Origin: Vampirovibrionales bacterium
GTDB lineage: Bacteria > Cyanobacteriota > Vampirovibrionia > Vampirovibrionales > Vampirovibrionaceae
Direction: 5' to 3'
Assembly: GCA_039794365.1 (NCBI GenBank)
Contig: JBDIVN010000009.1
Location: 70,833-134,832, forward strand
Length of the DNA stretch: 64,000 nucleotides
Shown here: positions 5,653 to 62,370 of the stretch, one piece after another
Layout of the letters: each line of letters opens with the position of its first letter
Position numbering within the stretch: the stretch's first letter is position 1
Made by a program: the position numbers and the translations under genes
The notes under the pieces: model-generated
Seen by the model: the letters and a program-made list of their open reading frames with translations, nothing else
Database searches by the model: none
Told to the model about the DNA's origin: nothing

Positions 5653-8600
5653 ATGATTACAGGGAATCAGGGTGTTGCGGGACGCTACGGGCTGCGCTCG
5701 CAGGCAGGACAAAACACGTTTAAACAGGATGCCAGCAGGGGGAACCGGTTTGCGGCAATGTTGCCGGCAGCGGATACGGTGCATTTTTCCGGGACCCGGC
5801 AAAGACAAAAGAGCATGGCCACCCGGTTGGGAGTGCCGGTCGTGGCGATGATGGCAGCCTTGTTCGCCCCCGACGCGCTCAATGGCAAAGGTAATGCATT
5901 CAACCTGCCCGGCACTGCGCAGGCCACTGAGGCGCCGGTAACGAATGACGTGACGGTACCGCTTTCGCCGGAATTGATGGCGTTGGATGCGCAGTATCCG
6001 GAACTGACGTTCCAGAAGCTCAAAAGCGGCGAGATTTATATCAGGCGCGATGACGGCTACCAGCTCTACATTCTCTCAAGGCCTGATATGAACGAGGTGA
6101 ACCTGCATACCTATGTCACCGTCGGGGCGGCCAACGAAACACCGTGCCATGATCCGGCCAAAGCCTGCACTCGCGGCGCGTCGCACTATGCCGAGCATAT
6201 GATCTTCGAAGGCACCGATGACATGCCGTTGCCGGGGCAGATCACCAGCCGTCTCGATTATCTCGGCGTCAAGCACAATGCCTTTACCAGCTACGATCAG
6301 ACCGGCTACTTCATGCGGATGCTCCCCGAAGTCTTTGACGAGGTGTTTGCCATGCATGCGGGCATGCTGACGGATTCCACATACCCAGAAGAAGCCTACC
6401 TCTCGGAAATGGGGGCCATTCAGCAGGAAATTTCCCAGCGTGCGGGGGTGGGGCTGGAATTCATGAACCGCTACAACAGGCTGCGTTATGGGACGGAGCA
6501 TCCTTATTCAGACGGTGTGGGCGGCCCGCTGTGGAACGTGGAGCGCCTGAGCCGGGATTTCCTGATGGATCACAACCATTACTGGTACCAGCCGGAGAAC
6601 TTCGTCACCATTGTGGCCGGGAATGTGGACGTGGCCGATGTTGTGAACAAGGTGCAGAGGTATTATGCGCCGGAGAAGTTTCCGGAGATTCCGGCGAGGT
6701 ACGAGCCGGTGAAGCCGGGCAAGGCACCGGTGCCGCAGGCCACGCAGGTTGATATTTTTGAACAGCCCCTGCTGGCAGGGGCCGGAACGGCGACCCTGAA
6801 AATGGGTTTCAACGGCCCCACGTGGGATAACCCGGAGGATGTCGTCGCCATGCGCATAGCCATGATGATGCTTGGCGGCGTGGCTGATTCCTGGCTGGAC
6901 CGGGAGCTTAAATTCGACCAGCAGGTGGTGGATTCCGTCGGCGCATATTTGAACCCGCAGCGTTACGGCGGCGAATCGGTGATCAGTGCCGAGTTCGACC
7001 CGAAGAACTTCGACGCGGTCCGCGACGGCATCCTGCAACAACTCCAGCGTCTGCGTGCCGGGGATGTCTCTGAAGCCGAACTCGATGCCATTAAAACGTA
7101 TTTTGCCAAAGGCGAACGACTGGGCAACGAAGACCTGCTCTCCTTTGCGCAAAGTCTTGGCCAATACCGGACCGAAGGCGGTCCCAACGACCTGTGGGTG
7201 AATTTCCTTGAGCGTGTTGACAGCATGACGGTCGAGGATGTGCAGCGGGTTGCCAGACAGTATCTGAATTATAACGAGCTGACGCTGATGGCCATGGTGC
7301 CGCCGGAAACACTGGATGTGGCGGCGGTAAACGCCGAGACGCTGGCGGCGATTGAAAAGACTGCGGCGCAACCCTTGGAGGAAGTTCCGCGGCAGGCGCC
7401 GACGGCGAACGGAAAGCAGATCATCGATATGCCGCTAAATAACGGCTCAAGGCTTTTTGCATACGTGGACCCGGCTGCTGAGACTGTCAGCCTGAAGATC
7501 ATTATCCGGGGCAGCGTCAATACGGAAGAGGTGCCGGCGACGGCGGCGATTCTGCGCCGGGTGATGGGGCAGGGCACGGCCAATCGCTCCGAGGCCGAAC
7601 TGAAACAGGAACTCAGCCGAAACCGGATGTCACTGTCCGTGGATGCCAATTCGAATTATCTGACCCTCAATGCCAGCGCCCTGAAAGAAGATCTCGGCGA
7701 GCTGCTGCTGCTGGTGCAGGACGTGCTGGCCAACCCGGATCTTGATCCGCAGAAGATCGAAGCGACCCGCAGCCGTTTCGAACGCGGAATCCGGCAGCAG
7801 GATGCCACGCAGCCCATGACGGTGGCCTTCCAGAATATGCGCGAGGCACTCTTTGCGGAGCATCGCTACGGGCGCACCAAGGAACAGCTGTACGACGGCA
7901 TTGCCCAGATCAATGCGGAGACGCTAAGACAGTACCATCGGGATCACTTCGTCCCGGAAAACATGCTGATCACGGCAGCCGGAAATGTGGATGCCGGCGA
8001 ACTGGCCAACCGGCTGGAAACCATTCTGCCCGGCTGGCTGAATGACCGTTCGGCGCTGGCGGGCAATCCACTGGAAGCCATTGACGGCGTTGCACCGCTG
8101 ACCGAGGATAAAACCGTGGTGACGGCAATGAAAACGCCGCTCCCGCAGGTGGCCATCGTTCAGGGCTGGCAGGTTCCGATGGGCAGCGAGGCGGATCACT
8201 TTGCCCTGACGGTTCTCGATGCCGTGCTCAGCAGCGGATTCGATTCCATTCTTTCCCGCGAGTTGCGGGGAGGGGAGGAAGGACTCGTCTATGGCGCTTC
8301 TTCAAGTTATATGAGTCAGCCCGGTACGGGCATGTTTTCCTTCAGCACTATCACGCGTCCGCAGAATCAGGACAGGGTGCTGGCCGCGCTGGCTGAGATC
8401 ACGGATCGGATGCAGCAGGCGCCGCTGGCCGAGGAGGATTTGGAGCGGGCCAAAAACCAGATTCTCAGCAGCTGGTACCTTGGCCAGAACTCCAACGATG
8501 CCGTTGCCGGTTTGATTGGCGATTTGGAAGTGATGGGCCAGGGGCGCGGCTATATGGAGCGCTTCCCGGAAGCTATCCGGGGCGTGACCGGGGAGCAGGT

Positions 8601-8676
8601 ACAGGAAGTGGCTCGCCGTCTGTTTTCACAGCCTAAGGTTACGTCACTCGTGGTACCGGAGGAAGACCGGCCCTGA
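5653..8676 (+). CDS. M16 (pitrilysin/insulinase) family zinc peptidase, two M16 halves fused, with N-terminal extension
   Basis: Inverted zinc motif HYAEH, NAFTSYDQTGY; second half lacks HxxEH; AAGGAG RBS before ATG 5653. Confidence 0.9.
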   Translation: MITGNQGVAGRYGLRSQAGQNTFKQDASRGNRFAAMLPAADTVHFSGTRQRQKSMATRLGVPVVAMMAALFAPDALNGKGNAFNLPGTAQATEAPVTNDVTVPLSPELMALDAQYPELTFQKLKSGEIYIRRDDGYQLYILSRPDMNEVNLHTYVTVGAANETPCHDPAKACTRGASHYAEHMIFEGTDDMPLPGQITSRLDYLGVKHNAFTSYDQTGYFMRMLPEVFDEVFAMHAGMLTDSTYPEEAYLSEMGAIQQEISQRAGVGLEFMNRYNRLRYGTEHPYSDGVGGPLWNVERLSRDFLMDHNHYWYQPENFVTIVAGNVDVADVVNKVQRYYAPEKFPEIPARYEPVKPGKAPVPQATQVDIFEQPLLAGAGTATLKMGFNGPTWDNPEDVVAMRIAMMMLGGVADSWLDRELKFDQQVVDSVGAYLNPQRYGGESVISAEFDPKNFDAVRDGILQQLQRLRAGDVSEAELDAIKTYFAKGERLGNEDLLSFAQSLGQYRTEGGPNDLWVNFLERVDSMTVEDVQRVARQYLNYNELTLMAMVPPETLDVAAVNAETLAAIEKTAAQPLEEVPRQAPTANGKQIIDMPLNNGSRLFAYVDPAAETVSLKIIIRGSVNTEEVPATAAILRRVMGQGTANRSEAELKQELSRNRMSLSVDANSNYLTLNASALKEDLGELLLLVQDVLANPDLDPQKIEATRSRFERGIRQQDATQPMTVAFQNMREALFAEHRYGRTKEQLYDGIAQINAETLRQYHRDHFVPENMLITAAGNVDAGELANRLETILPGWLNDRSALAGNPLEAIDGVAPLTEDKTVVTAMKTPLPQVAIVQGWQVPMGSEADHFALTVLDAVLSSGFDSILSRELRGGEEGLVYGASSSYMSQPGTGMFSFSTITRPQNQDRVLAALAEITDRMQQAPLAEEDLERAKNQILSSWYLGQNSNDAVAGLIGDLEVMGQGRGYMERFPEAIRGVTGEQVQEVARRLFSQPKVTSLVVPEEDRP

Positions 8677-8828
8677 CAGGACCGGCGCATTCTTCAACGG
8701 CTTGCGTAAGATAACCGGGCGGCTGGGCTGCTCGGAAAAGTGGCGTAGGCCGGGATACTCCGGAGTGGGATGGCGTCAGGGTCTGAATACCCTATATTTA
8801 AAGGAGAGACAACGAGGAGGACGGATTT

Positions 8829-9200: not shown

Positions 9201-9233
9201 CAGCCTGAAAGTAAAAGACTGGAAAAATCCATC

Positions 9234-11658: not shown

Positions 11659-13125
11659 ATGACAGTGGGAAGAATTCCTCAGGGCCAGCAGGCCCTGGGT
11701 GGCAGTGCAGGTATGGAGAGAGTGGGCGGACCGAAGGCGGGTCCGGAAGTGGCGACAAACAGAGAGGCGCCGCGACCGCAGACCGAAATCCGCCCAGGCG
11801 AGCGCGGCAGCGATATTCCCCAGTTCACGCCGAATTTCATGGCGATGGGGCAGCGGCAGGAGCCGGCACTCGCCCGGAACACGGACGCGATGGCAGAGGC
11901 CGGGAATGCTGCGGGTCAGAACCCGTTCCGGCTTGCTTCCGATACCGGTGGTCCCCAGGGAGCCGCTCCGGATGACGGCAAGCCGTCGGGCGACTCAGCC
12001 GGCGAATCGGCTGACGAGTCGTCCGGGGACAAGGCCGGTTCGTCGGCGGACGGCACGAAGCCGGAAGGAGAAAAGTCGAAGGACCCGGCGAAGGATTATG
12101 AAAACGGCAGCCGCAAAACCGGTGAAAACCTGGACAAAACCCTGGAAAAACTGGACGGGCAAGGTAAGAAGGCAACTGACGAACAGACGAAGCAAAAGAT
12201 TGAGGAACAGAAAAAACGGGCGGAAGAGCTTAAGAAGCAACTCGATGAACTCAACGGCAATGACAGGTTGAAGCCCGGCGAGAAGCTTGAGAAGCTGAAC
12301 CGGCTCAACCAGGAACTGTCCGAATTGCAGCAGCAGGTGGATAACCTGGGTCGCTCGTTACCGGAACAGGAAAACCCGGACTCGCCCGAATCACCGGGTG
12401 AGCCGGGCGCTCCTCCGGAAAATGGCAGCCAGCCGGACGGTGGCAATCTGGATAATGGCGGCGGCAGCCCGCCGGAAGGTGGAACACCTCCCGAAGGTGG
12501 AAACGAAGGCGGTTCTCCGCCGGGTCTTGACGGCGAAAACGGCGGTGCTCCTCCGGGCGGTGGAGAACCGCCGGGTGGTGGCGGTGCGCCCCCAGGCGGC
12601 GAGGCTCCTCCGGGTGGTGGTGCCCCTCCGGGCGGTGGCGGCGCTCCTCCGGGCGGCGGTGGGGAGGACCCCTTCAACAACGCCCCGCCGGGCAACGAGG
12701 AAAACCTGGACAGGCCGAACAGTCCCGACGGCGGGCAGCTTGACCCGAAATTCGTGGAAAAGGTCAATGGCGCCGATCTGGATGAGTTGCGCCGGATGAA
12801 ACAGGACCTCCAGAACCAGCTGGAGGACAAGAAGCGCAAGTTTGACGATCCGGATACGCCCAATGACGAGAAGCGCAAGATCGGCAACGAAATGCTGGAG
12901 TTGGGCAAACAGATGGAAAAGATTGACGAGGCCATCAAGGAGAAGGAGGCGGAAAAACCGGAGGACAAGAAGTCCGAAGACAAGAAGGATGAAAAGAAAC
13001 CGGAAGACCCGGCGAACAAGGACAAGCCGGGCAGCGACGGCGATGCCGGCAAAGTGAAGGAAACGGCGAAGCCGACTGCGGGAGAGAGCGGAAACGGGAT
13101 ACAGGCTCCCAGGCGCATCGCCTGA
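11659..13125 (+). CDS. Low-complexity hypothetical protein with coiled coils and (GGAPP)n repeats
   Basis: Two charged helical segments flanking GGAPPGGG repeats; AAGGA RBS; coding-like codon usage. Confidence 0.75.
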   Translation: MTVGRIPQGQQALGGSAGMERVGGPKAGPEVATNREAPRPQTEIRPGERGSDIPQFTPNFMAMGQRQEPALARNTDAMAEAGNAAGQNPFRLASDTGGPQGAAPDDGKPSGDSAGESADESSGDKAGSSADGTKPEGEKSKDPAKDYENGSRKTGENLDKTLEKLDGQGKKATDEQTKQKIEEQKKRAEELKKQLDELNGNDRLKPGEKLEKLNRLNQELSELQQQVDNLGRSLPEQENPDSPESPGEPGAPPENGSQPDGGNLDNGGGSPPEGGTPPEGGNEGGSPPGLDGENGGAPPGGGEPPGGGGAPPGGEAPPGGGAPPGGGGAPPGGGGEDPFNNAPPGNEENLDRPNSPDGGQLDPKFVEKVNGADLDELRRMKQDLQNQLEDKKRKFDDPDTPNDEKRKIGNEMLELGKQMEKIDEAIKEKEAEKPEDKKSEDKKDEKKPEDPANKDKPGSDGDAGKVKETAKPTAGESGNGIQAPRRIA

Positions 13126-13235: not shown

Positions 13236-14672
13236 ATGAGCAATATGCGTGTGGGAAGCGGACAGCAACGGCAGACCGCTTGGCAGCAGCCCCAAAGGCA
13301 GGCTTCCGGGCAGTCACATGCCAATTCACGCCCCATTGGGCGGCAAACTGGCGGAACCGGTGGACAGCAGCCGACGTCGCCGGGTCAGGGCCGGGGCTAT
13401 TCACCGATGTCCGGTGTCCGGCAGGCCCCGTTTCAGCCGACGGATTTCCGGACGGATTTTGCCCGGCTGGCCGGTCTGGAGGTGGACTCCTATCCCTATC
13501 AGCCGGAGGACCGACGGGAGGCAGACCGGGCACCGGCAGGGCCGAGCCGGTCACTACCGCAGGCGGACGACGGCGGTGGCCGCAATAATCAGACAGGCGG
13601 GACAGGGCAGACAGTCCGGGCCACCCGGCACGATCAGCCGGGTGAGGGCGGCAGGTCCGGCAATGGCATGGAGGCGGCCCGGTCAACACAGACCCGTCGG
13701 ACCGGAGAGCAGGAGCCTTCCGGGAAAGAGCGCTCGACGGCATCCGATGATGCGAAATCTCCGGAAAAACCGGAGGGCAGGTCTTCTGAAGGCAAGTCCT
13801 CCAAGGACACGCGGGAGACGGATGACACTCCCAAAAGCGGCAGGGGCTGGATGGAGAAGATCCGCAACGCCAACCTGCCCAAGACGGGCAAGGAATGGGT
13901 CAACTACGTCAAGGACAAACTGAAGGGGCTACTCAGCTCGATTCGAAACGGCATTGCCGGTCCCTTCAGAAACCAGATGGACCGTAACAACGGCTGGGCA
14001 TCCAACGTGATTTTTTCCGGGGCGTCCAACAGCCAGCACACGGTGGGCTGGATGAACCCTCATGGCAAGACGGCGATGGGCTACGCCCTCTCCAGATCCC
14101 TGCGGGATTCGCCCTCGCTGGTGGATGCCATGAACAAGTTCTCCGGACGGCCCTATCCGGGTTTTCCGCGTAATGCCATCGCCAAGTACTGGCATGCGGA
14201 CAAGGTTGGCGGGGATGGCTATTTCCAAAGCCCGCTGCGGTTTTCGAAAAACACCCAGAGCGGCCCGAACCCCACGAAAAACGTCTTCGTCGGTGTTTCG
14301 GGCGGTCCGGAAGGCGCCTTTTCCCGGAGCATCCAGGATATCGGCAAGGTGATGAAGGAGGAGTTCAACACCACCAACTTCATCTACCACCGGGGGACTG
14401 CGCGGGCGGACCAGCAGATTGCAAGCGCGTTCGGCAAGATTCGGGAGTACGCCCTGAAAAACCCCGATCAGCCGGTGTCCGTGGCATTCATGCTGGATAC
14501 CCACGGCGGCACCTCCGGCGGCAACCGGGCCGAAGGCTCCGGTCACGGGTTTACCGGACAGGTGGACGAGCGAACCCTGAAAAACCTGGTGAATCGCTAC
14601 CTGGGCGGGCTGGACAACGTGGGGGTCCATATGATCGTCAGCGCCTGCCATTCGGGAGCGTATCTCATGTAA
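13236..14672 (+). CDS. Disordered N-terminus plus C-terminal caspase-hemoglobinase-fold (clan CD) peptidase-like domain
   Basis: FMLDTHGG (His-Gly) and MIVSACHSG (Cys) motifs in the expected order after hydrophobic strands. Confidence 0.65.
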   Translation: MSNMRVGSGQQRQTAWQQPQRQASGQSHANSRPIGRQTGGTGGQQPTSPGQGRGYSPMSGVRQAPFQPTDFRTDFARLAGLEVDSYPYQPEDRREADRAPAGPSRSLPQADDGGGRNNQTGGTGQTVRATRHDQPGEGGRSGNGMEAARSTQTRRTGEQEPSGKERSTASDDAKSPEKPEGRSSEGKSSKDTRETDDTPKSGRGWMEKIRNANLPKTGKEWVNYVKDKLKGLLSSIRNGIAGPFRNQMDRNNGWASNVIFSGASNSQHTVGWMNPHGKTAMGYALSRSLRDSPSLVDAMNKFSGRPYPGFPRNAIAKYWHADKVGGDGYFQSPLRFSKNTQSGPNPTKNVFVGVSGGPEGAFSRSIQDIGKVMKEEFNTTNFIYHRGTARADQQIASAFGKIREYALKNPDQPVSVAFMLDTHGGTSGGNRAEGSGHGFTGQVDERTLKNLVNRYLGGLDNVGVHMIVSACHSGAYLM

Positions 14673-17621: not shown

Positions 17622-17623
17622 GA

Positions 17624-20036: not shown

Positions 20037-23000
20037 TCAGGGGGTCAGCCGCGTTCCCACCTGCAACGGCTTTGCCGTGGTCTTCTGGCTCAGGGATTCG
20101 ATATTGAACCGCAGGGGAATGTTGTTGCCGCTGATGGTGTTCTGGACGCTGAAATTGGTGCTGTCAAAGATGGTGATGCTGGTTTCGGACATATCGGCGA
20201 CGTACACCTTCTCGCCGTCGCGGCTGACGGAAATGCCGTAGGGGGTCGGTCCGACCGCCACCGTCCGGCTTACACTGCCGGTGTCCGTATCGATGATGGT
20301 CATGGTGCCGTCAAAAGTGTTCAGGACGTAAAGGGCCTTGCCGTTGGGATTGACGGCGAGCGCCTGCGGGTTGTTTCCGACCGTGATTTCCCCGCTGATC
20401 CTGCCGGTTCCGGCATCGATAACGGCAATGGTGTTGCTGCCTGAGTTGGCGACGTAGATCGTCCGGCCATCCGGGCTGATGTCAATGCCCGAAGGCTGGC
20501 TCAGGTTGCCTTCAATAGTCCGAACCACCCGGTTGTTCCGGGTGTCAATGACGGAGATGCTGTTGGCCGCACTGTTGGCAACATACAGGTTTTCACCGTC
20601 CGGGCTGAGGGCGAGACCTTCGGGATGCTCCCCAACGGGGATGTCGGTCATCACTTCGAGGTTGGAAGTGCTGATGACGGAAACGGTGTTGCTGCCGGAA
20701 TTGGCGACGTAGGCGGTTTTCATGGCCCGGTTCACGATAATGGCGTTGGGGTTGCTGCCGACCGGAATGATCTTGATAATCTGGTCGCCGAGAGGAACGA
20801 TGACGTAGACCTTGTCCGTTGAGGCGTTGGCCACGTAGTCCAGCTGGCCGAGGTCCTTGTCCTCGTATGTGAAGGAGCCGCTGCCAAAAGCCACGGTCGC
20901 GTTGAGCATGTCCTCGGTCCTTACCGGCGAGGCGGTCCCTGAACCGTCATCCGAAGCGGTCGAATCGGTGCTGATAACCACCGTTACCGGCTGGGTCAGC
21001 AGCGACGGATCGAGGGAGGCGATGGCGTCCACGACCTGCAGCGAGGGGCCGGGATCGAAAGTTGTGCCGCCGCTGCTGCTGGAAGACGGTGGTGGCGGGG
21101 CAAAGGTCGTGCCTCCGTTGAAGATGACCAGTCCCGGTGGTCCGCCGACGACGCTCAGGTCGTTGGTGGGCATGACGGTGCCGTCAATATTCACGGAAAC
21201 GCCGTTGACGGCGCCGCCCGCGCTGACAAACAGGTCGCCGCCCACGATGTTGACATCCAGCGGATCAGTATCGGTGCCGATGGTGCCCGATGCGGTGAGA
21301 TAGGAGTCGGCTCCGGCGGTGAAGTTGTTGGCCGCGCCGTTGCCGTCGAGAATGCTGCCGTTTTCGGCGCTGAGTTCAAACCCGGCGGTGCCCACGTCGA
21401 ACGTGCCGACGTAACCGCCGTCCGTCAGGTTGATGTAGGCGGCGGCGTTGTTGGTTTTCACGCTGATCATGCCCGTGCCGCCGATCTGCACGTCAAGATC
21501 GCCGAGGCCGGGGTTGCCAATCTGTCCCGTTCCCAGGCCGCCAGCCCCATCAAACGTGATGTCGCGGTTGTTGGCCAGGATGATGTTCGGTATGGAATCG
21601 TCGGTGGGGTCGGCATCGGTGATGGTGCCCGCCGTGCGCAGGTGAAGCGAGGCGTCCACGGCGGTGAGATCGATGGCGTCAATGCTCATGTCCCCGGTGG
21701 TGGCGTTGTTGCCGATGGTCAGGTTGCCGGCGGAAAGGTTGTTGAGTTCGGCGTTGGTCAGGCTCAGCAGCCCCGCGCCGCCGCCCAGGCCGATGGAGCG
21801 GCTGGCGGTGGATGCGGCCAGGGTGACATCACCGTTGCCCGCATCAATCGTCCCGCCGGAGAGATCCATATTGTCGGCGATGACGCTGACCGTGCCGTTG
21901 ATGGAGATAAGATTGCCGCCCGCCATGAGGTTCACGGCCCCGTTGCCCGGCGTGGTGAGGGTCACGGCGGTGGCGCCGTTGACGCTGCCGCCGTTGATGT
22001 TGATGGTGCCGTTGACGCCGGTGGTGTTCAGATTTACCGTGTTGCCGGTGACAGCCCCGGTGACGTCGATATCGCCGCCCGCCGTCAGGTCGTAGGCCAT
22101 CACGGCGCTGTTGCCGGCGCCCAGCGTCACGCCGTTGAGTTCGTCGATATAGACGTTATTGCCGCTGATGTCCAGGGTGGCGGCATCCGTGTCGAACCGG
22201 TTCCCGGCGGAGCCGATATCCGTGGCCGCCGTGACGGTCACGAGGCCGCCGCCCACCCGTCCGGCGTTCTGGGTGACTGTTCCCGCGCCGGTGGCCTCCA
22301 GGGTGACGGAGGTAGCGCCGGTGACGTTGCCGTTCAGGGTCAGGCTGCCGTTGGCGGCGGTGGTGTCCAGGCTGATGACGTCGCCGCTGATATCGCCGGT
22401 GGTGGTAAAGCTGCCGTTGGCAACGACATCCAGGATGCCGCCGTTCATATCCGACGCGCCGATGGCAATGTCATCCGTCTCGTTGATGTAGGCATCGCCG
22501 CCGTTGGCGTTGGCCGTCAGGTTGACGGTGTTGGTGTTGAACCGCTGGATTCCGGTTCCCGCGAAACCGGTGCCGAGGTTGAAGTTCAAATCCGTGGCGT
22601 TGACGATGTTGGCCGCTCCCTGGTGGATGTTGGCGCCGTTGCCGGTGGCCGAGAGGTTCACCGTGTTGCCGGTGACGTTGCCGTTCAGGTTGATGTGGCT
22701 GCCATCCGTCAGGGTGGACACGTCAACCTGGTCGCCCGCCGAGATGTCGGCATTGACGAAGATTTCGGCGTTGGCGCCCATCGTGCCGATGTCAAGATCA
22801 CCGGTTCCGTTGGTGACGTTGATGTCGCCGTTGAGGGTAATGGTGCTGCCCGTGCCCGTGGTGTTGATGATGGCCAGGCTGGTCGCCGTGTGGGTTCCGC
22901 CGCCTGCCGTGATGGTTGAATTGTCGCCGCTGGTGGTCATGTCGAACCGGTTGGCGCTGATGTCGCCGCTCATCGTGATGTCGGAATCATCCCGGTTGGT

Positions 23001-26000
23001 TCTCAGCCAGGTGTTGCCGGTGGTGGTGACATTGCCGGTGACAGAGACGGCGCTGTTGACCTGCTGGGTTTCGACGCTCAGCGTGGCGGCGGAAACATTA
23101 CCGGTCAGAGAGATAGCCGAATCCGCCTGCAGGGTTTCGATATCCAGCGTGTTGGCAATGGTATAGCCGCCGCCGGCGTCCTGCATCGTGATGCCGCTGT
23201 TCGTGCCCGCGGTGTTGAATATGGCGTTGGCGGCGGTGATGTCGCCGGTCTGGGAGATGCCGCTGTCCGTCGCGCCCGTGGTGGTCATGGACAAATCGCC
23301 GGTAAGGGTGATGTCGCCGTTGGTGGTGAGGGTGGACGTGTCGCCCAGGGCGGCCAGCGAAGCGTCCGCGGCGTCAATCGTGCCGTTCTGGTTAATGCTG
23401 CCGAGATTGGCGATGATGTCGATGTTGCCGCCCGCGCTCAGGTTGCCCAGTTCGAGGTCGGTCAGGGTATCCGTCAGGGTGAAATCGCCATTCATCGTGG
23501 TGGCGTTGATAAGGGAAGCGTTGAAGACGCCGGAGAGGTTGACCTGGTCGTCCACGTTGAAAATAATGTTGGAGCCTGTCAGATTGGCACCCGTGCCGAC
23601 GACGTCGAACATGTTGGTTGTGTTGATGCTGATGATGCCGGTGCCGCCTGCGCCGGTGCCGGCCTGCTCATCCAGGGTGCCGTTGTTTCCGGGGCCGGAG
23701 GCGTCGTTGACGATGCGGATCACGCCCCCGCCTTCGGCCATGATGGTAACGTCGGTCAGATCCAGATCGCTGGCATCATAGTTGATGGTGACGGACCCGT
23801 TATCGCCGCCCGCGGCGCGAACCGTTCCGGCGCTGGCAAAATCCCCGTCGATCAGGACCAGTCCGCCGCCACCGGCGTTGATGGTATCACCGGGATTGAT
23901 GGCGGGGTCAGGGGTGCCGCCGTTGTCGTCAAAGGTCAGGTTCTGCCCCACACCCGTTCCGGTCGCCTCGACAAGCGTTCCCGCACGGGAGATGGTGATG
24001 CTGTTGGCGGTGAGGCTGATGTTTTGGGCCTGATGGGTCCGGTTGGCCAGCAGGTCCAGCACGATGTCGCTGTTGGCGGCGGTTGCGTCCAGGTTGCCGC
24101 CAGCCGTCACGTTGCCGCCGTACATGTTGATATTGCTGTTGGCTCCGGTGGTGCTGAAGGTGATGTCATTGGCATTGGTCGCCCCGTTGATGGTGATGGC
24201 GCCGAAGGTGGCACCGGTGGTGGCGATGTTGAGATCCCCGGTCAGGTTGGCGCCGCTGATGGCAATGCTGCTCAGGTCATTGGTTGCGTCAAGGGTTGCG
24301 TTGACGCCACTGAGAACGCCCGTGGTGACATCGCCGTTCACGCCTGTGGTGTCGATGTCAATATCGTTGGTGGCGGTAATGGCGCCTGTGGAGATCCGGC
24401 TTTCATCGCCGGTGGTGGTCATGATGGCGTTGTCGGCGGCGATGGTTCCGCCGAGGAGCATGTCACTGTCGAAGCCGGTGGTGCTGGCGGTGAAGTTGTC
24501 GGTGGCGGTGATGTTTCCGGCGACGTTCATGGTGCCCAGGTTTGCGGCATTGGTGGTCAGGTTGATGACGTTGCCGCTCATGCCGCCGTTGGAGAAATTG
24601 ATGGTGCCGCCATTGAGGGTGATGTTGTTGGCGCCCGCCGTGATAACGTCTCCGGCCACGGTGGAGGTGATGGCACCGGCATTTCGCAGGTCAAGGTGGT
24701 AATCGAAGCCGCCGGCGGAAGTATCCATGGCGTTGACGATTTCCAGATCCCCGCCCATCGCGGTATCGCCGATAACCAGCGTATTCGCCGTGATGCGATC
24801 CAGTTCCACGTTCTCGATATCCAACACCAGGGCGGAATCGTTGTCGCCGACATTGTTCAGATCAATTTTCTTGGCTGTGGTGGCGGTGATGGTGACGGTG
24901 CCCGCCCCGGCATTGACCGTGCTTCCCGGCTCCAGATCGAACTGGGAGACGTTGAACATGATGTTGCCGCCGTTGGAATTTATGGCCGAGTTCTCCTGCA
25001 TGGAGAACCGGCCCGTGTTGTTGGCGTCCGTGTCGGCAAAAATGCCGATATCGCCGCCCGCCGTTGAATAGGTGGAACCCGCGCCGCCGTCCTGGCCGAG
25101 GAAGATGTTGTTCTGCGCCCGCAGGGTGATGCCGTTGGCGCCGCTCATGGCCATGCCGTCGTTGTCGAGATTGATGCTGCCGTTGCCCCCGTTGGCTTCG
25201 ATCCAGAGGGTGTCTCCCGCCGTAATGGCTGCCAGTCCGGCCTCGTCAGTAATGTCACCACCCGCCAGCAGTTGCAGCACGCCTCCTGCCGAAACGGTGG
25301 TTACGAGGTTCACGCCGTCAATGTCTGTGACATAGGCGTCCAGCCCGGCGTTGACTTGCAGGTTGTTTGCGTCGATGGTCACCGGCAGCGGAGCCGAACC
25401 AATGTTTGACTGAGTAGCGATGAGATTCAGCGTATCGGCAGTAATCAGGCCGCTGTTGTGGATAATGTCACTGTCCAGCCCGGCGGTGGTGATGGAGGCA
25501 CCCTGCCGGCTCTCTGACTGGTGAAATTGCCGGCGTAGGTGATGCTGCTCTGGTTGCCTGCCGTGGAAATAGTGGGGGAGTCCACGTTGGTGGTGATGTC
25601 TGCGGTGATGGAGATGTCGCTGTCAATGCCCGCCGTGGAGATGGTAAAGCCTTCACCGCCGCCGTCCACGCCGCCGCCGCGATCCACCTGGTCACCCATG
25701 GTATAGGGATTCACACTGCTGATGGTGATGTTGCTGCCGTCACCCGCCGTGGTAATTTCCGTGGCGTCCGTATAGGCGATGTTGCCGTCGGTGATTGTAA
25801 TGTTGGCATTGTTTCCGTTCGTGACCAGGCGCAGATCATCGCCCGCGGTAATGGTTGCCCCATTGAGATCGATGTCACTGTCCGCATTGTTCGTGATTGC
25901 GCGGATATCCCTGCTGGCAGTGACGGTGCCCGTAATGGAAATGTCGTTGTCAACGCCACTGGTAGTAAAAAAGACATTCGCACTTCCCGAACTCGCTGAA

Positions 26001-36664: not shown

Positions 36665-37579
36665 TTATTTCCGTGGGGTCTTCTGTTGTGGCTGGGGCTG
36701 TTGGTTGGCTTGCTGCCATGCAAGGTTGAGCAGGGCCGAGAGGGTTTCCTGCGCCCTGGTCATCCGGGACAGCAAGATAGGTCGGAACGCCGTTCGCAGG
36801 GCCGTGCTGCAGGCATAGGGATTGGCGGCTGCCCAGGGATTGGCAAGGCATGTCTGCTGGGCCTGCACGATATCGTACACGGCCAGGTGGCTTTCCAGAA
36901 CCTGCCGTTTCAGGAACGGCTCCAGGGTTTCGGCGGTCAATTCGGGCAGAGGGCTTGTCTTTGGAGGGTTTGCCAGTTGTGCCAGGTCGTTGGGCGTAAG
37001 CACGGCCTGTTCCAGGAAGGCATGGATGCCGGATTGGGGAAATGCGGGATGAATGGGCCAGTCATGATAAGTCGTGCTGTGCAGGGGCATGAACAGATCG
37101 CCCACATAGTGGGAGAGCCGTCCGATGGCATCGCTGAGGGCCAGTTGGAGCGTTTCTTTCTGGCCTGCGTCCTGGGTTTCGATGACCTGCCGCATCAGGC
37201 GCCGGGTATCGCGATAGGCCGTCAGAGTGGCGGTGACGACTGTTTCTCCCTGGGGAAGAGCAGGGCCGTTGCCCGGCGGGTTCTGCCACAGGCCGGCCAG
37301 CCACTGCCGGGCGTTGGGGTTGAAGTGCCGGAAAATGAAGTCCAGGGGCAGGGGGCCGTTGCCGGAAAATCGGTTGACCGGAAGCTCAAGGTTGATGAAG
37401 TGGTGCGGGCCTTTGTGATAGATGTCCTGGCTGTCGTCGGAGGCGGCGATGAACGGGCGGCTTTCCTGTAGAAACGGTTTCAGGGGCGTCTGGGGCAGGC
37501 GGTTGAAGGCGCCTTCGCGAATGGCGCCATGTCCGCGGCTGTCCCAGCCGAATCTCGGAGTGGTGTCGGAAATGCCCAA
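36665..37579 (-). CDS. S1/P1 nuclease / Zn-dependent phospholipase C fold protein with short non-Sec leader
   Basis: W-D-S-R-G-H start motif, D..HHFIN, HYVGDLFMPLH, IHAFLE; probable TTG start at 37579 behind CAGGGG (ORF is open to GTG 37705). Confidence 0.8.
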   Translation of the reverse strand: MGISDTTPRFGWDSRGHGAIREGAFNRLPQTPLKPFLQESRPFIAASDDSQDIYHKGPHHFINLELPVNRFSGNGPLPLDFIFRHFNPNARQWLAGLWQNPPGNGPALPQGETVVTATLTAYRDTRRLMRQVIETQDAGQKETLQLALSDAIGRLSHYVGDLFMPLHSTTYHDWPIHPAFPQSGIHAFLEQAVLTPNDLAQLANPPKTSPLPELTAETLEPFLKRQVLESHLAVYDIVQAQQTCLANPWAAANPYACSTALRTAFRPILLSRMTRAQETLSALLNLAWQQANQQPQPQQKTPRK

Positions 37580-37799
37580 AACGGTTGTCCCCTGGTGGTG
37601 TGGTTTGATCCGGCCATGCTGGCGGATCTCTCTCTGATCACTGTCCTCTTTAAAACCGCTGAAGCGGGTTTTGTGACAGTTTTTTTCAGGACTTGCCGGT
37701 TGCACAATCGGACGGTTCGTGGCATTTTTAGGGGACCGGGCAATTCTTCATCCGGTTTTGATTTTTTCAGTGTGATAACCGTTTTGAAAGTCCCCTTCC

Positions 37800-54022: not shown

Positions 54023-54038
54023 AATTTGTTGACGCCTG

Positions 54039-55499
54039 TCAGCCGGCTGATTTCACCGACCCGGAGTTTTGATGACTCCGGGTCGGTGTGCTTGGAGCGT
54101 CCCCGTTCTCAAAGCCTGCCCGCTTCAGGGCTTTTTTTATCAGCGGGCTTTTGCCGGAAAGCCGGTGAACCTGTCCCTCCCGTGCGGCATCGATCATCAG
54201 GATCATGCTGCCCATATCGATGCCCAGGGCGTCATCGGGCCGCCAACCGGAGTGAATGTTCCAGGCGCAGGCAATGCCGAAGGGGTCGTTGAGCAGACCC
54301 TGCCTTTCCATCGCCTTCAGGCTGTCGTAGACGCCCCGTTCATCAAAAGGCAGGCAGGCCACCACGGCGGGCGGGCCGATAGTACCGTCTTGAAACTCCT
54401 CTGAAGGCCAGTAGACACGGTAGCCTGCCGGGCCGTCGCAGGCCGTCAGGCCGAAGATGTGTTCCGGATAGCCTTTCTCCCGGCAAAACCGGCGGTGCAT
54501 GCGGACGGCAGCTTTCGAGGCCTCCCAGAAGTCATCCCCGGCGGCATCCTTTTTGTCCTTGAGGTTGAGAAACGCATGGGGATAGAAATAGGTGAACAGG
54601 GGCAGCCGGACGAAGGTTTTGTCACTATCTTCCTGCCACTGGCGGCTGCGATCCCAGCCGGATTCCCAGACGGCATCCGGTGTTTTTCCGGAGGCCAGGG
54701 CAATTAGCGGAACGAGAACCCCTTCGGAGTATTCGTCCCAGCGGTATCGGATATATTCCCGATGTCCATCCCGCTGGTGGAATCCCAGGCTGAAGGCCTT
54801 CGAGTCCCGATCATTACCCTCCTGGGTCAGCATGGCCCCGAAGTCAATCCCGTTGAACAGGGTGTTCACCTGCTTGCGCAGATTGCCCCCGAAATACTCT
54901 CCGGCGACGATGGCGCCCAGCATGAAAAGCGTGGTGTCGATGGATGAAAACTCTGACGTCGGCAGGGGTTGACCCGTATCGCCGTCCAGGAAGTGGGCGA
55001 GCCAGCCCCGATGTTGCGGGCCGGTGCCTTTCATCGCCGTTTCCAGCATTTTTTCTGCCTGTTGCCGGGCTTCTTTCCGCGAGATCATGCCCTTTTCCAC
55101 GGCCAGCGGAAGGATAGCCAGGCCAAAACCGGTGGCGGCGATACTGGCAATGTTACCCGGTTTCGGGCCATTTTCCGTATACTTGACCCGATCCGGGATC
55201 AGGCCCGACGGGGTGCGGTAATCCAGGAAATACCGGATGCCTTTCCGTTCGATGGTATCCAGCATGCGGTTCAGATCGCTTCGTTCGGCGGGTGTGAGGG
55301 CGCCGGTTTTTCCGCTGAAACTGACCCGATCCGGCGGCTGTCCGGGTACGGCCCGCATGGGATGACCGGTCCGGTTTCCGCTGAAAGCCGGTGACATGCG
55401 AAGAACAGCTGCGTTCGAGGAGCCGGTTAGACGCACGGAAAATCCCTCCTTGAGTTTTTCCTGAGTTTTTTGTCCCAACGATTGGATCGAAAGCCCCAT
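54039..55499 (-). CDS. GH144-like ('glucoamylase family') beta-1,2-glucanase with ~65-aa non-Sec N-terminal extension
   Basis: SIAATGFGL, FSSIDT, WDEYSEG, LPLFTYFY, GLTACDGP, DGTI, GIDMG. Confidence 0.8.
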   Translation of the reverse strand: MGLSIQSLGQKTQEKLKEGFSVRLTGSSNAAVLRMSPAFSGNRTGHPMRAVPGQPPDRVSFSGKTGALTPAERSDLNRMLDTIERKGIRYFLDYRTPSGLIPDRVKYTENGPKPGNIASIAATGFGLAILPLAVEKGMISRKEARQQAEKMLETAMKGTGPQHRGWLAHFLDGDTGQPLPTSEFSSIDTTLFMLGAIVAGEYFGGNLRKQVNTLFNGIDFGAMLTQEGNDRDSKAFSLGFHQRDGHREYIRYRWDEYSEGVLVPLIALASGKTPDAVWESGWDRSRQWQEDSDKTFVRLPLFTYFYPHAFLNLKDKKDAAGDDFWEASKAAVRMHRRFCREKGYPEHIFGLTACDGPAGYRVYWPSEEFQDGTIGPPAVVACLPFDERGVYDSLKAMERQGLLNDPFGIACAWNIHSGWRPDDALGIDMGSMILMIDAAREGQVHRLSGKSPLIKKALKRAGFENGDAPSTPTRSHQNSGSVKSAG

Positions 55500-56329: not shown

Positions 56330-56758
56330 ATGGCAACGAGTTCACTGTATCATGAAGATCGGTTCATCGGGCTGGAGGAGTTCCCTCCCGTACGCTTCAG
56401 CGGTTTTGATCATAACGTTGACGTTCATATTGCCCAGTACCTGAGAGATTTTTTCAGAAAGAGTACGCCATCCGACGAGGCGCCCACTTTTGTGATTCCC
56501 TCGATTCTGGATTTGTCAATGTATTTTCACTGCCACGAATTCGACATTCTCGATGTCATCGAAACCCTTAAAAGGCAAGGGTATGAATGCGATGTGCGGG
56601 ACTTTTACAAACCCATCCGGGTCAAGACGGCGCCCCCACCGGTTTATCACATGCGCCGTTTCGTGGAAAACCGGTGGCGCGGTATCGGGAACTTTCTCAT
56701 GCAACTGGCCCGGTATGGTCGCCCCCAAGGCAAACCGGGAAGCCTGCTGGAATCCTGA
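56330..56758 (+). CDS. Hypothetical protein (142 aa)
   Basis: GGAGG RBS; protein-like composition; no recognised motif. Confidence 0.65.
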   Translation: MATSSLYHEDRFIGLEEFPPVRFSGFDHNVDVHIAQYLRDFFRKSTPSDEAPTFVIPSILDLSMYFHCHEFDILDVIETLKRQGYECDVRDFYKPIRVKTAPPPVYHMRRFVENRWRGIGNFLMQLARYGRPQGKPGSLLES

Positions 56759-56777
56759 GAACCGTGAAGAAAGCGGG

Positions 56778-59700: not shown

Positions 59701-60170
59701 TTGGAGGTTTCCGTGTCCGTGAAGATGATGCGGGTGTCCTTGTACTTCTCCGTAGTGTCGCTCCACACGTAGAAATCCCGCTTGGAGGAACCCGGCGGCG
59801 CCTTGCGGGCGGCCTGGAACCAGGGATGCTGATCCGACGTGTGATTGACGACCAGTTCGGTGATAACCCGCAGGCCCCGCCGGTGGGCTTCTCGGATGAA
59901 GTGCTTGAAATCCCGCCGGTTGCCGTACACCGGGTTGAAGCCGTGGTAGTCGGCGATGTCGTAGCCGTCGTCCTTCAGGGGCGAGGGGTAAAAGGGCAGC
60001 AGCCAGATGGTGTTGACCCCCAGTTCCTGGATATAGTCCAGTTTGGCCGTCAAGCCGGGAAAATCGCCATAGCCGTCGTCGTTGCTGTCGAAGAACGACT
60101 TGACGTGGACCTCGTAGATGATGGCATCCTTGTACCAGAGGGGGTCCGATGCCGGTGAAAGGGGGGACAT
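56778..60170 (-). CDS. treS: Trehalose synthase (maltose alpha-D-glucosyltransferase) fused to maltokinase (Pep2)
   Basis: [57 protein letters not shown]; C-terminal kinase-like domain (DFEGE). Confidence 0.93.
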
Positions 60171-60256
60171 GGTTGCGGGCGTCTCCTGATCGCGTCGCCT
60201 GATAACGGTTCAAGGATACCAACAAGACCCTGAATTTCAATGCGTGAAATTATACC

Positions 60257-61681
60257 TCAGGGGGATCGGTCCGGCAGAAGGTTTGCCAGGAAGCGTTCCG
60301 GAACCAGAATCCCCGAACCTACCGCACCTTCGGGAGCTTCCACCTGAAGGCTGGCTTCCTGGGAAAGGGTCTCCAGTTCCGGAAGAGTCAAAACCGGGTT
60401 GTGGTGAAGCTGGAGTGCAATCAGAACAGCCGCTACCGGATTGACGTAGCTGGTGCCCGTGGCCAGCCGGTTCAGGGAGGCCAGGGGGATGCTTTCGCCG
60501 CTGAGGGTCATGGTGGGTTTCCATCGGCTTCCACGGGAGGAATAGGGCGTTGGCGTATCATCGTCGTAGACGCCGGGCGTGCCGTTTTCGCTGGCGGCGC
60601 CCACACGGATGACGTGGGGACTCCAGCCCAGCATGTTCACTTGCCAGTCCGGTGTGGAGGGACGAATATCCTGCGGCAGGGCGCAATGCTCGTTGCCGAT
60701 GGCTATGACGGGGAAAATTCCGGCTTCAACGGCCTGTCGGGTTGTTTCCACCCATTCGGCGAGGGCCTGCTGGACTTCGGGACGGCGAACCTGCTCGTCC
60801 ACGAAATCCACCCGCTCCTGCCGGCGCCTGTCAGAACCCCTGTTGTAATGTTCGGCAAGGATGACACCAATGGACATGTTGACGACCAGCGGTTGCCGGA
60901 TGTCTTCATGCGTCTTCAGGGCCATCAGGAATTTCAGCCAGTCCGTGTACTTGTAAAGATCTTCCGTAATGCCCCGGACTACGTGGTTGTCGCGGGGAAT
61001 CGCACGGGTTTCCGCCTTGAAAAATTCGGTTTCCGGAGCTTCCCGGTTTCGCGCAGGCCAGTAGCGAACCTCCGCCTGGGGAAGCAGGCCGTCTTGCTCG
61101 CTGTTGATTACCGCCTGAACCATGTCGTCATGGCTGAACATATAGGTATCCAACTGGATGATATTGTTCAGCGGAATTTCCGAAAGACCCCATTGCCGGA
61201 ATTGCCGCCTGAGATGCTCCACGGCGCTGTCTGCCTTGAGCCGGGCCAGTTCATCGGGAGATTCAATCTTTTTCTTGTAGGCCTTGACCCGCGCCCGTTC
61301 GTCATCGGTTCCCGATGGCGGAATAAAGGCATCTTCCTCTGTCTCCTGGCTATCTCTGATGATGACGGGGGTATACCTCAAGGGTACCGGCATATCCGTC
61401 TGGCCTGGAATGGCGGGAGAGAAAGCGGTCATTGCCGGTGGATTCAGAGAAACCTCCGCGGAAGCGACCTTTTCCGCAAATGGAAACAGTGCGGGCAGCA
61501 GGGCAAAAAGCCGGATGAGAAAGTGCTTTTTCAGCAGGGGCATCCGGGATTGGCCCGGCGTGAACGTATCGCCACAGGCGCCTTCGCGTCCGAATGCCGG
61601 GACGATTCCGGCTGGCAATGGCCGGTCAGGCTGGTGGCAAGCAGGAAACAACCCTGCGCCCTGGAGAGGCAAAACGTTCAT
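60257..61681 (-). CDS. Divergent subtilisin-like (S8) serine peptidase with bipartite N-terminal leader
   Basis: IIQLDT (Asp), SHDD (His), VVNMSIG, IAIGNE (oxyanion Asn), ATGTSYVNP (Ser). Confidence 0.7.
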   Translation of the reverse strand: MNVLPLQGAGLFPACHQPDRPLPAGIVPAFGREGACGDTFTPGQSRMPLLKKHFLIRLFALLPALFPFAEKVASAEVSLNPPAMTAFSPAIPGQTDMPVPLRYTPVIIRDSQETEEDAFIPPSGTDDERARVKAYKKKIESPDELARLKADSAVEHLRRQFRQWGLSEIPLNNIIQLDTYMFSHDDMVQAVINSEQDGLLPQAEVRYWPARNREAPETEFFKAETRAIPRDNHVVRGITEDLYKYTDWLKFLMALKTHEDIRQPLVVNMSIGVILAEHYNRGSDRRRQERVDFVDEQVRRPEVQQALAEWVETTRQAVEAGIFPVIAIGNEHCALPQDIRPSTPDWQVNMLGWSPHVIRVGAASENGTPGVYDDDTPTPYSSRGSRWKPTMTLSGESIPLASLNRLATGTSYVNPVAAVLIALQLHHNPVLTLPELETLSQEASLQVEAPEGAVGSGILVPERFLANLLPDRSP

Positions 61682-61800
61682 GAACCCTTCGAACCCAAAA
61701 ATTCCACTTGAGGCAGTCATTGTAACAAAAAAAGAAACAGGCATGAATTGTCCTGTTCCGGTTGAATATTAAGCCGAATATGAAAACCGGAAATGCGAAA

Positions 61801-62370
61801 TTAGAACTTGACGGGCAGCGGGAGTCTGAAGCCCGCGGCGGAAAAAATGTTACCGATGGCGTTCAGGCTTTCTCCAAGGGTATATTCCCGTTCAGGCCGG
61901 CCATTTTTTCGTATGGCGTGCAGGGGGGAAACGCCTGGCTCCGGCGTAAAGCGGCGAAGCTGGACATACCGGTGATGTTCCTGCGGCGATAGCACCGTCC
62001 GCCCGATTTGAACGAATCCTTCACGCCGGGCGGCGCTGATGCCCAGGATGGCGTTGGGCGTGCCGTCGGAGGAAAACAGGCTGAGGTTGCTGCCGTTGTG
62101 CTCTCCCTCATCATGGGTGGTCAGGGCGAAAACCGGTTTTTCACGGCGGGTCATGGTGAAGGAGTCCCCATCGAAACTGTAGCGGGTCTGACCGTCGGCG
62201 GATTTCAGCTGTACGCCTGATTCATCTGCCGCCAGGATTCCCTGGACCTCTCCCTTGGGAGACACCAGCCGGATTTCCGTGGCGGTGACGGGACCCGGTT
62301 TCTCAATATATCCGAATCGTGGACGGATGTTATAGATCGCAAGCGAATTCAGCGGCAGGGATGTTTCCAT
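61801..62370 (-). CDS. Hypothetical protein with N-terminal PRFG motif
   Basis: AGGAGG RBS; beta-strand-rich body; no recognised domain. Confidence 0.65.
   Translation of the reverse strand: METSLPLNSLAIYNIRPRFGYIEKPGPVTATEIRLVSPKGEVQGILAADESGVQLKSADGQTRYSFDGDSFTMTRREKPVFALTTHDEGEHNGSNLSLFSSDGTPNAILGISAARREGFVQIGRTVLSPQEHHRYVQLRRFTPEPGVSPLHAIRKNGRPEREYTLGESLNAIGNIFSAAGFRLPLPVKF

Follow-up and report, generated by a model that had tools for sequence, protein, structure and literature searches.

An N-terminal leader closed by a phenylalanine-centred box on unrelated proteins of a Vampirovibrionales bacterium and its Melainabacteria-type relatives: a candidate sorting and processing tag

The 64,000-nucleotide stretch of DNA from a Vampirovibrionales bacterium considered here (contig JBDIVN010000009.1, positions 70,833 to 134,832; hereafter, the window) raises the question of why several unrelated proteins should begin with hydrophilic extensions that close on nearly the same few residues. 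An earlier note on this DNA had singled out five genes, coding for an M16 peptidase, a GH144-type glucanase, an S8 subtilase, an enzyme resembling S1/P1 nucleases and zinc-dependent phospholipases C (PLC), and a 189-residue protein of unknown function, and had read their common motif as a dedicated secretion and/or maturation signal. Every motif quoted there was confirmed in frame at its position, and the five carriers are indeed non-homologous, with Pfam matches to M16, Glycoamylase/GH144 and S8, a weak S1-P1/PLC match for the nuclease and a weak DACNH match for the unknown protein. Equally borne out was the claim of an N-terminal leader lying outside the catalytic families, on unrelated proteins of which many are hydrolases. 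A lineage-wide, apparently undescribed N-terminal leader exists, and in the window it tags the M16 peptidase and the GH144 glucanase; leader and motif are conserved at the protein level, N-terminal, restricted to the lineage and common to unrelated families. No Pfam or NCBIfam model covers this leader, and none was found described in the literature searched.

The motif has the general form [V/I/P]-x-F-(S/T)-G and is called here the Phe-box. Provisionally, a Phe-box leader is a hydrophilic N-terminus of up to about 70 residues with [VIP]-x-F-[STKG]?-[GAS] shortly before the fold, in a Melainabacteria-type genome. Leaders of this kind were found on the M16 peptidase, the GH144 glucanase and the product of a 142-residue open reading frame (ORF) absent from the earlier list, and in a weak form on the nuclease and the 189-residue protein. 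The M16 and GH144 proteins are solid carriers, the nuclease, the 189-residue protein and the 142-residue ORF are probable ones, and the S8 subtilase is doubtful. The idea of one motif on five genes holds for the first two and is weak for the three proteins with P[AR]FG (nuclease, 189-residue protein and S8 subtilase).

The M16 gene (5653..8676, + strand) encodes a pitrilysin-type peptidase with a double M16/M16_C arrangement according to Pfam. It opens with a hydrophilic leader of 47 residues (5653..5793, +) that ends in DTVHFSG (residues 41-47; 5773-5793, +, in frame). Clear Shine-Dalgarno (SD) sequences are in use across the genome, and the ATG at 5653 is preceded by one of them (AAGGAG) and agrees with an independent gene call (P0121). 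None of 30 M16 homologues, all at most 27% identical, has the leader, and the extension is therefore not a feature of the M16 family. The M16 box reaches 12.1 bits with a position-specific scoring matrix (PSSM) trained on GH144 sequences alone, and the M16 leader is in register with GH144 leaders when aligned.

The GH144-type (Pfam Glycoamylase PF10091, E=1.5e-36) beta-1,2-glucanase is encoded at 54039..55499 (- strand) and carries two boxes in frame, a proximal PAFSG (residues 37-41; 55377-55391, -) and a distal DRVSFSG (residues 57-63; 55311-55331, -). Both are kept whether translation starts at the ATG at 55499 or, as is likelier, at the GTG at 55436, which has the SD sequence AAGGAGGG and was chosen by the gene callers (P0001, 465 residues). 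A search with this protein gave 123 homologues, headed by the window's own P0001 and followed by about 19 relatives at 38-49% identity, including a protein of ACD20. The closest contigs are assigned to Candidatus Melainabacteria, Cyanobacteria UBA9971 and Cyanobacteriota metagenome-assembled genomes, with a G+C content (GC) of 31-37%; that of the window is 54-63%. The window was found to have no synteny with other Melainabacteria loci. It comes from a distant, GC-rich member or relative of the Melainabacteria group.

In about 15 of 20 GH144 orthologues, on AT-rich Melainabacteria-type contigs, DRVSFSG aligns with DT[VI]xF[ST][GAS], the boxes opposite it being DTVTFTA, DTITFSA, DTVSFSA, DTVSFSS, DTVNFTG and similar. 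The phenylalanine at its centre (F61) is at least 90% conserved, and the box is the sole conserved feature of a divergent, otherwise unalignable N-terminus of 50-70 residues. Looser proximal copies also occur in orthologues, such as LPGFG (P0011), IAFSGF (P0013), INFG (P0010) and NISFGA (L086); since they match the PAFSG/DRVSFSG pair of the window, a P-x-F-G variant of the box is plausible. AlphaFold2 run with the orthologue alignment gave residues 1-65 a predicted local distance difference test (pLDDT) score of 24-29 with no secondary structure; confidence is high from residue 68 on, and the first helix is at residue 70, with the box five to six residues before the fold. As the leader is predicted to be disordered and the domain to begin at residue 70, the box would sit at the junction of leader and domain, and no docking on the enzyme itself is predicted. 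The box is conserved as protein and not as a DNA repeat, because the two window heptads are written in different synonymous codons and the leaders have no DNA similarity. On the same grounds, an origin of the common motif in a DNA repeat or mobile element was ruled out.

The comparison of GH144 enzymes across phyla points to a targeting role. A hydrophobic N-terminal segment is present in 65 of 104 homologues of other phyla, and those that have no signal have no extension either, their domain starting from about residue 20. Within the Melainabacteria clade, 15 of 16 GH144 proteins have the hydrophilic leader of 50-70 residues and one of the 16 has a hydrophobic segment. Because the leader occupies the place of the Sec/Tat signals found in homologues of other phyla, it may itself have a targeting function.

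The same leader is found on unrelated proteins of the relatives, in many cases with precisely DTVSFSG as its box. On the ACD20 contig L089 (AMFJ01007535.1, 6093-13916), four adjacent beta-1,2-glucan genes all have it and none has a hydrophobic signal: a GH94 supersandwich fragment (Pfam; box ..QRVVFKG), a GH94 phosphorylase (Pfam; MLSSLNTKL...NNLDTVSFSGAK, box DTVSFSG), a GH144 enzyme (..EKDTVTFTS) and a GH2 enzyme (Pfam; ..KQNISFGS). On contig L165, the leader is carried by five of 15 genes. They encode the GH144 enzyme, an ATLF-like metalloprotease of 595 residues (..GDTLSISFKGY), two unknown proteins of 347 residues (..SGQVSFSGV) and 471 residues (..EKDVVSFGRR), and an FtsH-like protein (6457-8220, -) with an AAA and a partial M41 peptidase domain, whose N-terminus MLVQSPEIISFKS has no hydrophobic segment and bears the boxes PEIISFKS and ANFVPFLGS. 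A further example is a 156-residue protein of contig L161 (..AQNVSFKAT). When a profile of 13 leaders was compared with 1.84 billion representative proteins, four matches were obtained, among them, at E=5e-4, P0153, a complete ORF of 86 residues composed of a 43-residue leader (MLIQAVNLFNTKN...LAPLKQDTVSFSG|GIPNPRD..) and 43 further residues. Since the P0153 leader matches a profile of GH144 leaders, the whole leader, beyond the heptad, is common to different families. Another match, P0152, is a TPR/Sel1-type repeat protein and was discarded as spurious. An alignment of leaders only, compared with an index of 5.8 billion proteins, collected 41 candidates and, at E values up to 10, gave no match.

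Many of the AT-rich leaders also open with M-L-I-(Q)-(P/S)-L-(N/K), and similar starts are seen in the window in the S8 subtilase (MNVLPLQG), the 189-residue protein (METSLPLNSL) and the GH144 glucanase (MGLSIQSLGQ). This start, which the leader hidden Markov model (HMM) does not pick up, may be a second element of the leader.

A motif this short might recur by chance, and its frequency was therefore compared between ORF sets. One set, of 189 greedy ORFs, came from 257 kb of Melainabacteria-type DNA, the window among it, and the control set, of 1,469 ORFs, from 1.97 Mb of DNA of other phyla; the GH144 genes were excluded from the counts (leaving about 185 and 1,465 ORFs, respectively), and residues 1-80 were taken as N-terminal. 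The pattern [VI][STNH]F[STKG][GAS] was found eight times in 14,160 N-terminal positions of the Melainabacteria ORFs, compared with three times in 49,431 of their internal positions (p=5e-4) and five times in 117,200 N-terminal positions of the control (p=1.4e-5). This is an approximately 14-fold enrichment outside GH144 over the N-termini of other phyla, obtained with a pattern refined after examples had been seen and on a small sample whose loci were all reached through the neighbourhoods of one gene family (GH144). With the PSSM trained on GH144 alone, six matches of at least 10 bits in 14,800 Melainabacteria N-terminal positions contrast with four in 116,320 control positions (p=3e-4), and at 11 bits or more no match is left in the control N-termini. 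Within the window, [VIP]xFSG occurs four times at N-termini and once internally (p=0.006). The D-x-V-x-F-S-G form exceeds chance: D.[VIL].F[STN][GAS] has two matches in the six-frame translation of the window, both within the first 65 residues of the M16 and GH144 proteins, and in about 1.1 Mb from other phyla the form occurs at internal positions only. An N-terminal enrichment was seen, in this small sample, with the refined pattern and the GH144 matrix; the loose F[ST]?G is not enriched at the window's N-termini (5.4 versus 3.7 per 1000 positions, p=0.18).

The shorter form fares differently. P.FS?G has 21 six-frame matches in the window and is thus common in every frame, and all four N-terminal matches to P[AR]FS?G are the window's own. 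The P[AR]FG pattern was defined post hoc, and a rough look-elsewhere estimate, made by reasoning and not computed, is that about one four-residue pattern would recur four times among some 50 N-termini by chance. These figures bear on the possibility that the recurrence is a coincidence, with a peptide specific to the GH144 family and, in the other genes, chance matches in low-complexity or untranslated sequence upstream of over-extended ORFs. Such an explanation would account for the post hoc P[AR]FG and the lack of enrichment of the loose pattern, for the orthologue pair L083/L081, in which F and L are swapped inside the box, and for the presence of the heptamer in phages. Exact DTVSFSG is conserved around residue 57-59 in two unrelated families of phage contigs (IMG/VR, L176-L214), one of tail-fibre-like proteins of about 860 residues and the other of 148-residue lipoproteins; the matches in the back-translated scan of viral contigs were confined to a few unrelated phage protein families and to antisense frames. 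The phage DTVSFSG appears to be unrelated to the Melainabacteria leader, and the heptamer is diagnostic only in an N-terminal, disordered and lineage-specific context. Nevertheless, coincidence seems quite unlikely as a general explanation, given that exact or near-exact boxes occur at similar offsets in at least eight unrelated families of one lineage and in none of the 1,465 control N-termini once a score of 11 bits is required, that the whole leader is similar between the 86-residue P0153 and GH144, and that the starts which include the leader have good SD sequences ahead of them in the M16 peptidase, the 189-residue protein and the 142-residue ORF.

What the box might do is best read from the nuclease-like gene (36665..37705, -). 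Its PRFG (37547-37558, -, in frame) directly abuts a tryptophan (37544-37546) with which the sequence WDSRGH begins, and by eye WDSRGH, SDD, HHFIN, HYVGDLFMPLH and IHAFLE follow in the order of the S1/P1 family. In that family, zinc is coordinated by the free amino group of Trp1. The PDB yielded eight distinct sequences of S1/P1 nucleases, every one of which begins with this tryptophan, and the invariant positions in an alignment of P1, S1 and TBN1 are W1, G5, H6, D45, H60-F-I, H116..G-D120..P-L-H126 and H149..D153; the P1 reference sequence used matched chain A of PDB 1ak0 with 100% identity along 264 residues. Provided that the window protein does belong to this family, its tryptophan must be residue 1, and cleavage would therefore take place exactly after the glycine of the box. 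The nuclease PRFG would then fit a maturation site, and it is the sole mechanistic clue to the function of the leader. From the TTG at 37579, which has a moderate SD sequence (CAGGGGA), the leader is only 11 residues long (MGISDTTPRFG). The alternative GTG at 37705 has no SD sequence, yet the longer form that it gives shows frame-specific codon bias and contains a second box, KTRFSGF (TRFSGF, 37652-37669), like AFSGF in P0013 and RFSGF in the 142-residue ORF.

The remaining carriers in the window are less clear. The 189-residue protein (61801..62370, -) starts at the ATG at 62370, which has a good SD sequence (CAGGAGGAA) and was called identically in a Logan assembly. Its leader, METSLPLNSLAIYNIRPRFG, carries PRFG at residues 17-20 (62311-62322, -), a motif that is weak by itself, and its only Pfam match is the weak one to DACNH. 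The 142-residue ORF (56330..56758, +) begins with MATSSLYHEDRFIGLEEFPPVRFSG followed by FDH, and its box VRFSG (56390-56404, +), in ..EEFPPVRFSGFDH, makes it the sixth candidate. It has no Pfam family and has a strong SD sequence (CAGGAGG), and the gene calls of two separate Logan assemblies include it. In the S8 gene (60257..61744, -), PAFG (61589-61600, -, in frame) lies 36 residues before a classical Sec signal peptide, MPLLKKHFLIRLFALLPALFPFAEKVASA (61457-61543, -), which reads MPLLKK...VASA|E, has the features of Sec type I and reaches a Kyte-Doolittle 15-residue maximum of about 2.0. No coding bias was found in the 67 codons upstream of this signal peptide, the SD sequence is weak or absent at all three candidate ATG starts, and the choice of the gene caller is simply the longest ORF. 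The subtilase may therefore start at its Sec signal peptide, leaving PAFG untranslated; an upstream region with no coding signal before a perfect signal peptide is also what over-extended ORFs would give. The concern that true starts might lie downstream of the motifs is allayed for the M16 and 189-residue proteins by good SD sequences and for GH144 by the retention of both boxes, is reduced for the nuclease by a moderate SD sequence, and persists for the S8 gene.

Sec/Tat signals had been described as missing from these N-termini, which is correct for some carriers. The Kyte-Doolittle 15-residue maximum does not exceed 1.41 in the first 130 residues of the GH144 glucanase, the nuclease, the 189-residue protein and the 142-residue ORF, and 14 of about 16 well-defined leader proteins have no 15-residue window above 1.6 over that length. 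The exceptions are the S8 subtilase and the M16 peptidase, in which a hydrophobic segment follows the motif. In the latter, a signal- or anchor-like segment, MATRLGVPVVAMMAALFAPDA (5815..5877, +), begins eight residues past the box and has a Kyte-Doolittle maximum of 2.03 at residue 59; it partly fits a Sec type I signal, its cleavage site is poor, and the internal ATG at 5815 has merely a weak AAAGAG upstream. Distant GH144 homologues show the same order, with a signal past the leader that is lipoprotein-like in P0017, Tat-like (SRRAFLKS) in P0019 and transmembrane in P0020.

This order suggests a further possibility, namely that the leader is an extension of ordinary Sec/Tat signals, comparable to ESPR or YSIRK, which adjusts when or where translocation takes place; proteins with the leader alone would then be derived forms, or their hydrophobic segment would have been missed. 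It accords with the leader-then-hydrophobic arrangement of M16, S8, P0017, P0019 and P0020. The explanation is unlikely, though, in view of the 14 proteins that never exceed the hydrophobicity threshold, of the single hydrophobic segment among the 16 Melainabacteria-clade GH144 enzymes, and of the lack of a Pfam ESPR match in the scan of the M16 and S8 proteins, which returned catalytic domains only. Other known signals were also sought. No RR-x-F of the Tat type and no lipobox or prepilin G|F-T-L-x-E pattern was found in the six window leaders; a genuine lipoprotein (window position 3391) and a genuine pilin (L001) were recognised elsewhere. Compared with a double-glycine leader, position -1 is G, A or S, but position -2 is S, T or K and position -3 is an invariant F.

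The reading that best joins the evidence from GH144, the nuclease and the relatives is that the leader is a sorting and processing tag, a reading that we consider about evenly balanced between right and wrong. According to it, some of the lineage's proteins, unrelated in other respects, would be fitted with a modular leader at the N-terminus. This leader, of 10-65 residues, hydrophilic, predicted to be disordered and often provided with a degenerate proximal box, would end in the Phe-box [D/N/Q]-[T/R/K]-[V/I]-x-F-[S/T/K/G]-[G/A/S], or here also P-[A/R]-F-(S)-G, placed a few residues ahead of the folded domain. A receptor particular to the lineage might recognise the alternating V-x-F core in the form of a short, extended peptide, and a cut immediately past the small residue at the end of the box would remove the leader. 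A more far-reaching version, in which the box is the key to an undescribed export and maturation route of Melainabacteria/Vampirovibrionia, serving with a cleaved leader and no hydrophobic signal peptide about 5-10% of the sampled proteome, namely hydrolases, proteases, nucleases and small proteins of unknown function, is put forward tentatively, with the balance of probability against it. Any export route for the tagged proteins is putative.

Several points weigh against the sorting-and-processing reading, and above all against export. Since a signal follows the leader in M16, S8, P0017, P0019 and P0020, in those proteins the leader can be neither an export signal that acts alone nor a simple substitute for Sec/Tat. 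Of the dedicated secretion and maturation signal proposed in the earlier note, what survives is that the nuclease motif ends where the mature enzyme must begin; the leader as a simple replacement of Sec/Tat does not. The nuclease assignment behind this clue is itself fragile: its Pfam matches are sub-threshold (S1-P1_nuclease, E=0.011, 16.1 bits; Zn_dep_PLPC, E=0.043, 14.2 bits), hhalign aligned only the HxxGDxxxPLH block (P=0.0019, probability 14%), phmmer gave no matches in the PDB, and the single-sequence AlphaFold model has a pLDDT of 42. P[AR]FG alone has no significance above chance and lends no independent support, and the occurrence of DTVSFSG in phage families means that a bare heptamer match proves nothing. 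To this are added the small, single-family origin of the enrichment sample and its retrospectively refined pattern, as well as the finding that a full-leader HMM of the AT-rich relatives recognised no window leader beyond the core box, the composition being too different (58% versus 31-39% GC). Apart from a TpsA-like protein, no C39/ABC exporter, prepilin peptidase or secretion-system gene was seen among the window ORFs scanned, some small ORFs lying outside the scan. Finally, the cargo is unlike that of simple secretion, since it includes GH94 phosphorylases, which are cytosolic, and an FtsH-like AAA+ protease whose N-terminus is not hydrophobic. For this reason, the "digestive secretome of a predator" of the earlier note is an over-reading; unrelated hydrolases are indeed tagged, but, in view of the GH94 and AAA+ cargo and of the hydrophobic segments of M16 and S8, a non-Sec digestive secretome is only partly supported.

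The same cargo favours the main rival, a cytoplasmic docking or regulatory peptide that would tether its carriers to a scaffold, membrane complex or chaperone, or govern regulated proteolysis or inactivity, with no membrane crossing. GH94 phosphorylase, GH2 and the FtsH-like protease would be natural clients of such a peptide, the tag is on each of the four enzymes of a single beta-1,2-glucan locus, as co-localisation would have it, and the M16 leader is placed by the positive-inside rule on the cytoplasmic side of the hydrophobic segment. However, docking does not explain why the GH144 leader sits where other phyla have Sec/Tat signals or why the nuclease should require the removal of everything up to the box. 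Moreover, the tagged proteins are mostly hydrolases and small unknown proteins, and no histidine-, tryptophan- or aromatic-biosynthesis gene of the window has a box. Docking is thus held to be possible but doubtful.

If the leader is a true sorting and processing signal, it would represent a new class of bacterial targeting peptides and imply a receptor and a protease in a poorly studied, phylum-level lineage. Standard predictors would call the tagged proteins cytoplasmic, so that what is inferred about the secretome and lifestyle of Melainabacteria (as gut fermenters or algal predators) would have to be revised; the cargo could be listed by a simple search for the motif. As the core of the signal is an N-terminal phenylalanine, and the lineage is a sister of Cyanobacteria, the Phe-box might be read by a receptor of the Omp85/TpsB type, or by another that works by beta-augmentation, and in that event it could bear on the origin of the Phe-dependent import signals of plastids. 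Should it be a mere cytoplasmic docking tag, it would be a lineage-wide, modular short linear motif on unrelated enzymes, which would still be unusual in bacteria.

Other features of the window were recorded alongside. The TpsA-like protein (25445-32782, -) has 2445 residues, of which 102-336 form a two-partner secretion (TPS) domain, and its hydrophobic segment is preceded by a long extension at the N-terminus; a TpsB partner was not seen in the window. Next on that strand comes a protein of 1781 residues (20037-25382, -) with C-terminal NHL/beta-propeller repeats. ARAGORN placed a 101-nucleotide tRNA-Gly(GCC) at 21948-22048 (+), inside and antisense to this 1781-residue ORF, which is probably a false positive because no Rfam match in the window reached the gathering score. 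Two adjacent low-complexity proteins of about 480 residues, rich in Q, G, P, E and K and with no Pfam family (11659-13125, +; 13236-14672, +), contain Phe-Pro variants near residue 55-65, DIPQFTPNF and RQAPFQPTDF; similar segments were noticed in the S8 protein (GDTFTPGQ) and in a 5'-nucleotidase of contig L085 (QPDTFVSPS). These Phe-Pro segments may represent one more variant of the box, or they may be coincidental. Just upstream of the M16 gene, an ORF of 143 residues (4683-5114, +), called as a gene in a Logan assembly, starts with MTLGCSPNKLIPSPAFTARA, in which PAFTA resembles the box; with a low coding score and a longer ORF overlapping it in antisense, it may not be real. Between 37964 and 52552 (+), a run of same-strand ORFs forms an apparent histidine, aromatic and tryptophan biosynthesis block, with no box in its genes. 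The tryptophan families (Chorismate_bind, GATase, Glycos_transf_3, IGPS, PRAI, PALP and Trp_syntA) were confirmed on contig L174, and the histidine and aromatic ones were read by eye. Contigs L168, L169, L174 and L175, from Logan assemblies of the runs SRR28812184 and SRR28812187, are identical to parts of the window and add no genes beyond it, and the organism has therefore been sampled at least twice.

Regarding known systems, the Phe-box leader has something in common with several of them. With the TonB box it shares a short heptad of the form D-T-(V/I)-x-hydrophobic-x-small in a disordered N-terminus; the TonB heptad binds by beta-strand addition. This likeness raises the idea of a TonB-box-like or bacteriocin-like uptake signal that would work on target cells instead of the producer, in the manner of colicin import. 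In its favour, DTVxF[ST][GA] resembles the (D/E)-T-x-x-V-x-A TonB box and stands in the disordered N-terminus of nucleases, proteases and glycosidases. Nevertheless, phenylalanine replaces the canonical valine, immunity genes were not seen, a number of the carriers are unlike toxins, Pfam found no plug or colicin domain in the scanned carriers, and these are soluble enzymes instead of outer-membrane barrels. Such a role is very improbable.

Sec, Tat, lipoprotein and prepilin signals are likewise N-terminal, and the GH144 leader replaces them at the same place, but the Phe-box leader is devoid of an h-region, of a twin arginine, of a lipobox and of G|FTLxE followed by a helix. ESPR and YSIRK/GS sequences resemble it as extensions that precede a hydrophobic signal, as in M16, S8, P0017, P0019 and P0020; they differ in lineage and motif, and most Phe-box carriers have no hydrophobic segment. 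The N-terminal signals of MIX, FIX and RIX effectors and of extracellular contractile injection systems (eCIS) are comparable in that a short N-terminal motif on polymorphic hydrolases or toxins devoid of Sec signals defines a class of cargo, whereas their sequence motifs are others and no type VI secretion or contractile injection genes were seen in the window or related loci. Double-glycine (GG) leaders have 15-30 residues, the pattern LSxxELxxIxGG and a cognate C39-ABC transporter. Like these leaders, handled by peptidase-containing ABC transporters (PCAT), the Phe-box leader is N-terminal, non-hydrophobic, modular and transferable, is found on unrelated cargo, has small residues before the mature part and also occurs on small proteins made of a leader and a short core, here P0153. 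In contrast, the V-x-F register of the box is strand-like instead of having the -4/-7/-12 spacing of an amphipathic helix, and Phe-box leaders reach 65 residues and their cargo 1000 residues. By analogy, the Phe-box leader would thus be closest in its logic to the cleavable leaders of the GG type and to cargo markers of the MIX/RIX type, and the subset with a hydrophobic signal after the leader would come closest to ESPR or YSIRK.

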